The position numbers were made by a program, and so were the translations under genes. A stretch of DNA of 23,946 nucleotides from a virus (Duplodnaviria > Heunggongvirae > Uroviricota > Caudoviricetes). The notes beneath the pieces are model-generated. The model saw only the letters and a list, made by a program, of their open reading frames with translations, was not told where the DNA came from and ran no database searches. Shown here piece by piece: positions 9,421 to 11,746 of the stretch. The DNA is taken from positions 1 through 23,946 of IMG/VR virus record IMGVR_UViG_2617270941_000003; one strand, given 5' to 3'. Position 1 is the first letter of the stretch; every line of letters begins with the position of its first letter.

Positions 9421-11746
<2,326 letters not shown>

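Follow-up and report, generated by a model that had tools for sequence, protein, structure and literature searches.

The Asp-to-Asn change in the active-site motif of a Rac prophage deaminase is invariant in KomA, which generates the signal of Kongming anti-phage defence

The window analysed here, a 23,946-nucleotide stretch of viral DNA, encodes a protein of the adenosine deaminase (ADA) family in which the active-site motif TDDP is replaced by SDNP. The question raised by this locus is whether the exchange of the second Asp for Asn points to an altered substrate, to altered catalysis or to neither. A first-pass annotation had read SDNP at the positions given in Table 1, and both translation of the minus strand and alignment to solved ADAs confirm it. 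When all PDB sequences are searched with phmmer, the residues icSDNPa of the protein are placed over inTDDPa of the Vibrio ADA (6n91), and two further solved ADAs have SDDP or TDDP opposite the SDNP. The agreement with three solved enzymes shows that the register is correct, which removes the concern that the motif had been misassigned, and it makes Asn284 the counterpart of Asp296 in mouse ADA. The HxH, HAGE and RIGHG motifs, described as intact, are indeed so (H15/H17, H202/E205 and H226). The roles that had been assigned to the two acidic residues are also correct: the first Asp binds zinc and acts in catalysis, and the second, Asp296 in Arabidopsis MAPDA (AtMAPDA), bonds the purine N7 (PMC6451127). 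Asp283 is thus retained as the zinc-ligand and catalytic residue, and Asn284 occupies the position of the residue that contacts N7. A further active-site substitution had been overlooked. Two residues after HxH, Asn19 replaces Asp19 of mouse ADA, a residue that binds the 5′- and 3′-hydroxyls of the ribose (PMC12669630).

The deaminase is KomA of the Kongming anti-phage system, in which it generates the signal; the system is cargo of an Escherichia coli Rac prophage. The open reading frame called mechanically runs from 10766 to 11794 on the minus strand. The true start of komA is Met17 of that frame, an ATG at 11746, in agreement with RefSeq, with the 326-residue homologues and with the published residue numbering. 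The Kongming study by Zeng et al. was published in Science in 2025. WP_023277476.1 (326 residues) is the RefSeq coding sequence on DNA that is 100% identical to komA of the window, and in Table S1 of the Kongming paper KomA appears under this accession and is identical in sequence, [11 protein letters not shown] included. The characterised enzyme comes from E. coli NCTC13216 (WP_023277476.1; Zeng et al., bioRxiv 10.1101/2024.12.20.629578). The genes that follow komA are equally recognisable. KomB is 100% identical over 184 residues to the chain named KomB in PDB 8zsg, and KomC is 100% identical over 264 residues to the chain named KomC in 8zsf. The start of komB overlaps the stop of komA by 4 nucleotides (ATGA), and the start of komC overlaps the stop of komB (TAATG). 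The order of the genes on one strand, with komA upstream of the HAM1-like komB and then the SIR2-domain komC, is the published Kongming architecture, and the residues mutated in the Kongming paper are found here at the same numbers (H15 and H17 in KomA; N9, K12, E15 and H65 in KomB; H146 in KomC). KomB carries His where the catalytic Asp of HAM1 proteins is expected. Accession, sequence and komA-komB-komC operon are therefore all shared with the characterised KomA and there are no differences at the protein level. The TetR gene adjoining komA is frameshifted in the window.

Table 1. Coordinates of the Kongming genes, the KomA active-site motifs and neighbouring features in the window
Feature	Positions	Strand	Description	Basis
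komA	10766..11746	-	326 residues; adenosine-deaminase-fold dAMP/dADP deaminase	PF00962, E = 2.2e-46
komB	10215..10769	-	HAM1-like dITP sensor with dead catalytic site (His65)	PF01725, 2e-39
komC	9421..10215	-	SIR2-domain NADase effector (His146)	PF13289 (SIR2_2), 1.5e-26
KomA HVHLNG	11687..11704	-	metal ligands H15 and H17; N19 replaces mouse ADA Asp19	translation
KomA Asn19 codon	11690-11692	-	within HVHLNG	
KomA HAGE	11132..11143	-	metal ligand H202 and catalytic E205, intact	translation; clade-invariant
KomA RIGHG	11066..11080	-	catalytic H226 (equivalent of mouse His238), intact	translation; clade-invariant
KomA S282-D283-N284-P285 codons	10892..10903	-	SDNP motif	translation and alignment to solved ADAs
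TetR/AcrR-family gene	12048..12494	+	divergent from komA; frameshifted	Pfam TetR_N
Kongming and TetR gene together	9421-12494		between the Rac replication module and nin-like/lysis genes	
Left end of window	1-1900		unmatched in the genomes that best match the remainder	
Tail-fibre assembly protein	120-701			
Tail-fibre/collar protein	701-2125			

By fold, KomA sits close to the canonical ADAs. It scores 169.5 bits against the NCBIfam adenosine deaminase equivalog TIGR01430, below the curated cutoff of 216.55 bits. The PDB sequences searched with phmmer include no KomA entry, and an AF2 model (pLDDT 94.6, pTM 0.92) was compared with known folds by Foldseek. The nearest folds are ADA1 and bacterial Add (TMq 0.86), followed by ADAL/MAPDA and then by Cad1 (0.76-0.82).

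The biochemistry of KomA is already described. [quoted passage not shown] The combined action of a phage dNMP kinase, KomA and the host NDK yields dITP, which binds the catalytically dead KomB and turns on the NADase activity of KomC, resulting in NAD+ depletion and abortive infection. In the KomA mutant H15A/H17A, defence, NAD+ depletion and dITP production are all abolished (bioRxiv 10.1101/2024.12.20.629578). Since this activity belongs to an identical protein, the KomA of the window is an active, nucleotide-preferring enzyme and not a pseudo-enzyme. The interpretation offered in the first-pass annotation is partly supported by these data. It had proposed an altered substrate preference, and KomA does favour nucleotides over free adenosine, but the particular substrates suggested are not supported, and neither is a causal link between the Asp-to-Asn change and the specificity of KomA. 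Nucleoside triphosphates such as dATP and ATP were among them, and it is dATP that the identical protein was not seen to deaminate. An ADP-ribose derivative was the other, a reading rejected on the published biochemistry, in which ADP-ribose arises only at the end of the pathway, as the product of the effector KomC. As for the alternative suggestion of altered catalysis, the identical protein is catalytically intact. The annotation had also stated that its reading would fall if the Asp-Asn pair proved to be the normal state of an active subfamily with ordinary adenosine specificity. The pair is normal in a characterised, active enzyme, although the specificity of that enzyme is not for ordinary adenosine. 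The feature belongs to a system that others have characterised by experiment, and Cad1 is a documented case of the same Asp-to-Asn change. Neither of the two Kongming papers comments in its main text on Asn284 or Asn19, and Asn284 goes unmentioned in the other literature searched.

The window is a Rac prophage. Its genes follow the order intR, xisR, ralR, recT, recE, racC, kilR, sieB, racR, ydaS/T/U/V, DUF1627 and DUF977, after which come the TetR gene, komABC, DUF1971, nin-like genes, lysis genes, trkG and tail-fibre genes. Kongming and its TetR neighbour are found between the replication module of Rac (ydaU, ydaV, DUF1627 and DUF977) and the nin-like and lysis genes. The GC content of the operon is 35% compared with 44% for the window, as expected for acquired cargo. 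Across 5,426 complete E. coli genomes, Rac-like sequence is present in nearly all, but komABC, at 99-100% identity and always on the chromosome, is present in only 81. Compared with strain BR1220, in which it is an intact coding sequence of 148 residues, the TetR gene lacks 2 bp of a GA repeat near 12306 and is split into two open reading frames (11961-12344 and 12265-12492). The deletion could be a sequencing error, or could mark a pseudogene or a phase-variable tract. At the left end of the window lie two tail-fibre genes, and the genomes that best match the remainder, at 82% coverage, leave this end unmatched, which suggests that this Rac variant carries a different tail-fibre module.

How unusual the motif is among the relatives of KomA can be answered directly. 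SDNP is the invariant normal state of the KomA clade and not a lesion, a chance event or a change peculiar to one strain. Of 120 homologues at 52-98% identity, 119 have SDNP and one has ADNP, and all 120 have Asn19. A wider search of 1.84 billion representatives clustered at 50% identity extends the clade to about 32% identity, and in these representatives the motif, where it can be read, is always [STA]DNP, and neither Asp nor Glu occurs at position 19. The sole exception to the clade motif is P0148, the sequence of which diverges and ends at the motif. In an alignment of 37 clade members at 31-69% identity, D283, N284 and P285 are invariant, as are the metal-binding and catalytic residues. 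The same is seen from the genomic side. In an initial scan of 80 genomic loci, all 20 deaminases with an adjacent KomB had the Asp-Asn pair (DN), but one of the search patterns itself contained DNP. This biased the scan, and it was therefore repeated with KomB as the only anchor and the motif left unused, over metagenomes and viral contigs. Of the 86 loci recovered in this way, 60 have an ADA gene beside KomB. DN is found in 58 of 58 deaminases adjacent to KomB on the same strand, made up of 57 KomA-type proteins encoded immediately upstream and one RdrB-like protein; the other two adjacent genes are one that is truncated and one that has the Asp-Asp pair (DD) and is divergently oriented.

Several of these loci are of interest in their own right. 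The RdrB-like deaminase (L153:1-1887, plus strand; PADLOC RdrB, 1e-43) takes the place of KomA directly upstream of KomB and reads GTDNPG. The DD protein (L159:1322-3903, minus strand) reads HVHLRGT...TLATDDP with Arg at position 19, diverges from a KomB that begins at 4001, and belongs to a locus that has no KomA-type gene; it appears to form an operon with a TIR-APAZ-like gene (PADLOC Aga_TIR-PNTD, 1e-145). This deaminase could belong to a neighbouring SPARTA-like system or could be a variant signal generator. A deaminase of the KomA clade with Cys19 and CTDNP, matching KomA at 236 bits, occurs in a Muiribacteriota metagenome-assembled genome (L018:2412-3410, plus strand), where KomB and KomC are absent within 8.4 kb and the neighbours look like housekeeping genes (a redoxin, an EF-hand protein, phosphoglucomutase, an esterase and an M28 peptidase). 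The remaining 26 of the 86 KomB loci have no ADA-family reading frame (for example L100, L110, L137, L141, L144, L147, L150, L151, L154 and L157). At least 10 of these include about 3.9 kb of upstream sequence, which fits the description of KomA in the literature as a replaceable module of Kongming. Two KomB-anchored loci (L096 and L097) have komA split by a frameshift.

Invariance within one clade does not make DN a marker of that clade, as becomes clear when the family is viewed more broadly. The 150 representatives nearest to KomA were compared, and DN was found in 38 of the 101 that fall outside the KomA clade. A large group with the pattern HxHLDGS...NTDNRTVS combines Asp19 with DN and has no Pro after the pair (for example P0160, P0173 and P0176, and loci L049 and L080). 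Members of this TDNR group score about 285 bits on TIGR01430, above its cutoff, and none has a solved structure. Their gene contexts are not defence-like, and the 5′-nucleotidase gene adjoining the L080 member gives a weak hint of a housekeeping role. Smaller groups have Leu, Thr, Ala, Gln or Ser at position 19 together with TDNP, while the groups HRHLEGS...TDDP and HLDG...TDDP are DD. Just five positions set KomA apart from every other ADA (P63, W64, A157, C246 and C281), and N284 is not among them. Residues 19 and 284 do vary together, however. Representatives with a non-acidic residue 19 have Asn rather than Asp at the second position by 42 to 3, those with an acidic residue 19 have Asp rather than Asn by 56 to 23, and DNP accompanied by an acidic residue 19 occurs once among the 150. 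Fisher's test gives p = 6e-13, or 7e-5 when the KomA clade is left out, with both values calculated from raw counts that ignore shared ancestry.

A parallel to the KomA active site comes from Cad1 (CAAD), the CARF-fused adenosine deaminase of type III CRISPR, a defence-associated enzyme of the ADA fold that likewise acts on an adenine nucleotide (TaqCad1, PDB 9ebt and others). Both enzymes have exchanged the equivalent of Asp296 for Asn (Asn549 in Cad1) and lost the acidic Asp19 (Gly264 in Cad1, Asn19 in KomA). In TaqCad1 and its close homologues, both of these residues contact ATP (PMC12669630). The phmmer match between KomA and 9ebt has a coordinate offset consistent with N284 lying opposite residue 549, with the Cad1 residue states themselves taken from PMC12669630. 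Mutations in TaqCad1 are informative. N549D and N549D/G264D both lose ATP deamination, while the double mutant raises adenosine activity only slightly (PMC12669630). In the opposite direction, mouse ADA D296N is severely impaired, in the form in which that result is cited in PMC12669630. The two enzymes also differ. Cad1 is a hexamer of chains of about 600 residues, each with a CARF sensor at its N terminus; cA4 or cA6 activates it allosterically, and its specificity is for ATP. KomA is a stand-alone protein with a preference for dAMP and no reported activity on dATP. Pfam finds only the ADA domain in KomA and no CARF domain. A match to the PADLOC CARF_ADA model covers only its ADA part (positions 332-560), and this model does not discriminate, as it gives 95-198 bits on every ADA type, DD and TDNR controls included. 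A close relationship between KomA and Cad1 was considered and rejected, with canonical ADA favoured by phmmer (99 versus 55 bits) and by Foldseek (0.86 versus about 0.80). Given that the fold match to Cad1 is weaker than that to ADA1, the Asn common to the two may be convergent.

Other named deaminases mark out what the motif does not say. ADAL/MAPDA enzymes (AtMAPDA, 6ijm; human ADAL, 8qch; TMq 0.78-0.85) resemble KomA as stand-alone proteins of the ADA fold that use a nucleoside 5′-monophosphate, although their role is in housekeeping and not in defence. AtMAPDA has Asn17 at the position equivalent to Asp19, as in KomA, but it keeps D295-D296, is inactive as D296A and acts on N6-methyl-AMP (PMC6451127). 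RdrB of the RADAR system (E. coli, PDB 8fnv/8fnw) is, like KomA, a defence-associated deaminase of the family that makes inosine nucleotides. It differs in being a dodecamer of chains of about 800 residues with large insertions that deaminates (d)ATP and has the ATPase RdrA as partner; KomA has no PADLOC RdrB match and the komABC operon no RdrA-like gene. The Kongming literature records that RdrB-like genes sometimes adjoin KomBC, as also seen at the locus described above. The solved E. coli RdrB (8fnv) reads GSDDPG and is therefore DD, and the KomB-linked RdrB-like protein has GTDNPG at the aligned position. The notion that all defence nucleotide deaminases are DN was rejected on the strength of the solved RdrB. 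Canonical ADAs (mouse and human ADA1; E. coli, Vibrio and Salmonella Add) share with KomA the (β/α)8 fold, the metal ligands and the catalytic Glu, His and Asp; they have Asp19 and Asp296 and use free adenosine or deoxyadenosine, whereas KomA has N19 and N284 and prefers nucleotides. R99 and R143, considered as KomA-specific phosphate ligands, were discarded as they are conserved in all ADA groups. As RdrB and MAPDA keep DD and the TDNR clade, above the equivalog cutoff, has DN with Asp19, DN is not diagnostic of nucleotide substrates: specificity for nucleotides does not require it, and it has not been demonstrated to be enough by itself.

What Asn284 contributes to KomA can be approached through the chemistry of the position. 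D283 would keep its role as zinc ligand and catalytic residue. The purine N7 is a hydrogen bond acceptor, and so the canonical Asp296 would have to be protonated to act as a donor; one curated ADA-inhibitor complex has a hydrogen placed on Asp296. The amide NH2 of Asn284 could preserve the bond to N7 whatever the protonation state, with no need for a protonated carboxylate. With Asp19 and Asp296 both replaced, the pocket would carry two negative charges fewer, which would suit a substrate with a 5′-phosphate. By analogy with Cad1, with its paired substitutions and the loss of activity in N549D, the Asn of KomA is most likely needed for productive nucleotide binding, probably as one part of an adaptation that involves several residues and not as a specificity switch alone. 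The whole of this reading, namely that the protein is KomA of Kongming, that SDNP is invariant and that Asn284 most likely serves productive nucleotide binding, we hold at a probability of roughly 0.7.

Its main competitor is that Asn284 is a marker of lineage, with Asp and Asn roughly interchangeable at this position and the nucleotide preference set by other residues, for example those at position 19, W64 and the lid helices. The distribution of DN outside the KomA clade, including the TDNR group with Asp19, fits this idea, as do the retention of DD in the nucleotide-specific RdrB and MAPDA, the position of N284 outside the five that separate KomA, and the failure of the Cad1 back-mutation to restore adenosine activity. 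We nevertheless regard it as unlikely. More than 200 sequences, with identities as low as about 30%, show no variation at this residue, which speaks of strong constraint within the clade. Exchanges of Asp for Asn (mouse ADA D296N) and of Asn for Asp (Cad1 N549D) have both proved damaging, and the covariation with residue 19 is strong.

Two further explanations would assign Asn284 an effect on activity itself. It might tune catalysis down, such that deamination of host dADP stays low and KomBC is not self-activated, while the flux driven by the phage still gives dITP. The severe impairment of mouse ADA D296N, as PMC12669630 cites it, would agree with such a brake, but the relatively high dAMP deaminase activity of KomA does not, and the Asn of Cad1 is needed for activity rather than restraining it; we consider a tuning role improbable. 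At the extreme, SDNP could mark a deaminase-like protein that is catalytically dead or only binds its ligand. There is some precedent in that mutation of D296 costs both canonical ADA and MAPDA their activity, and the adjoining KomB is indeed a dead enzyme reused as a sensor. Purified KomA, however, deaminates all four of the nucleotides named above, the H15A/H17A mutation abolishes defence, and the metal-binding and catalytic residues are all intact and invariant. The pseudo-enzyme reading is refuted by this biochemistry on the identical protein, and we give it next to no credence.

A broader generalisation would be that a non-acidic residue 19 together with Asp-Asn-Pro forms a recurrent signature of the switch of the ADA fold from nucleosides to 5′-phosphorylated adenine nucleotides, as in KomA and Cad1. 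We offer this as a speculative idea that is probably not correct as it stands. If it were true, several uncharacterised ADA clades that pair Leu, Thr, Ala, Gln or Ser at position 19 with TDNP (for example P0163, P0192, P0204, P0232 and P0259) would be nucleotide deaminases, and N284D combined with N19D would move KomA back towards adenosine.

For the prophage, the outcome is a textbook copy of Kongming in Rac, and the odd deaminase requires no new hypothesis. For annotation of the family, the value of the motif lies in its distribution: DN is invariant in KomA, common to Cad1 and absent from the solved RdrB and MAPDA, and the motif alone is unsuitable for inferring substrate. For the biology of the system, it is the selectivity of KomA, which accepts dAMP and dADP and not dATP, that keeps Kongming silent until a phage kinase arrives, and the candidate residues for this selectivity are N284, N19, P63, W64, A157, C246 and C281.
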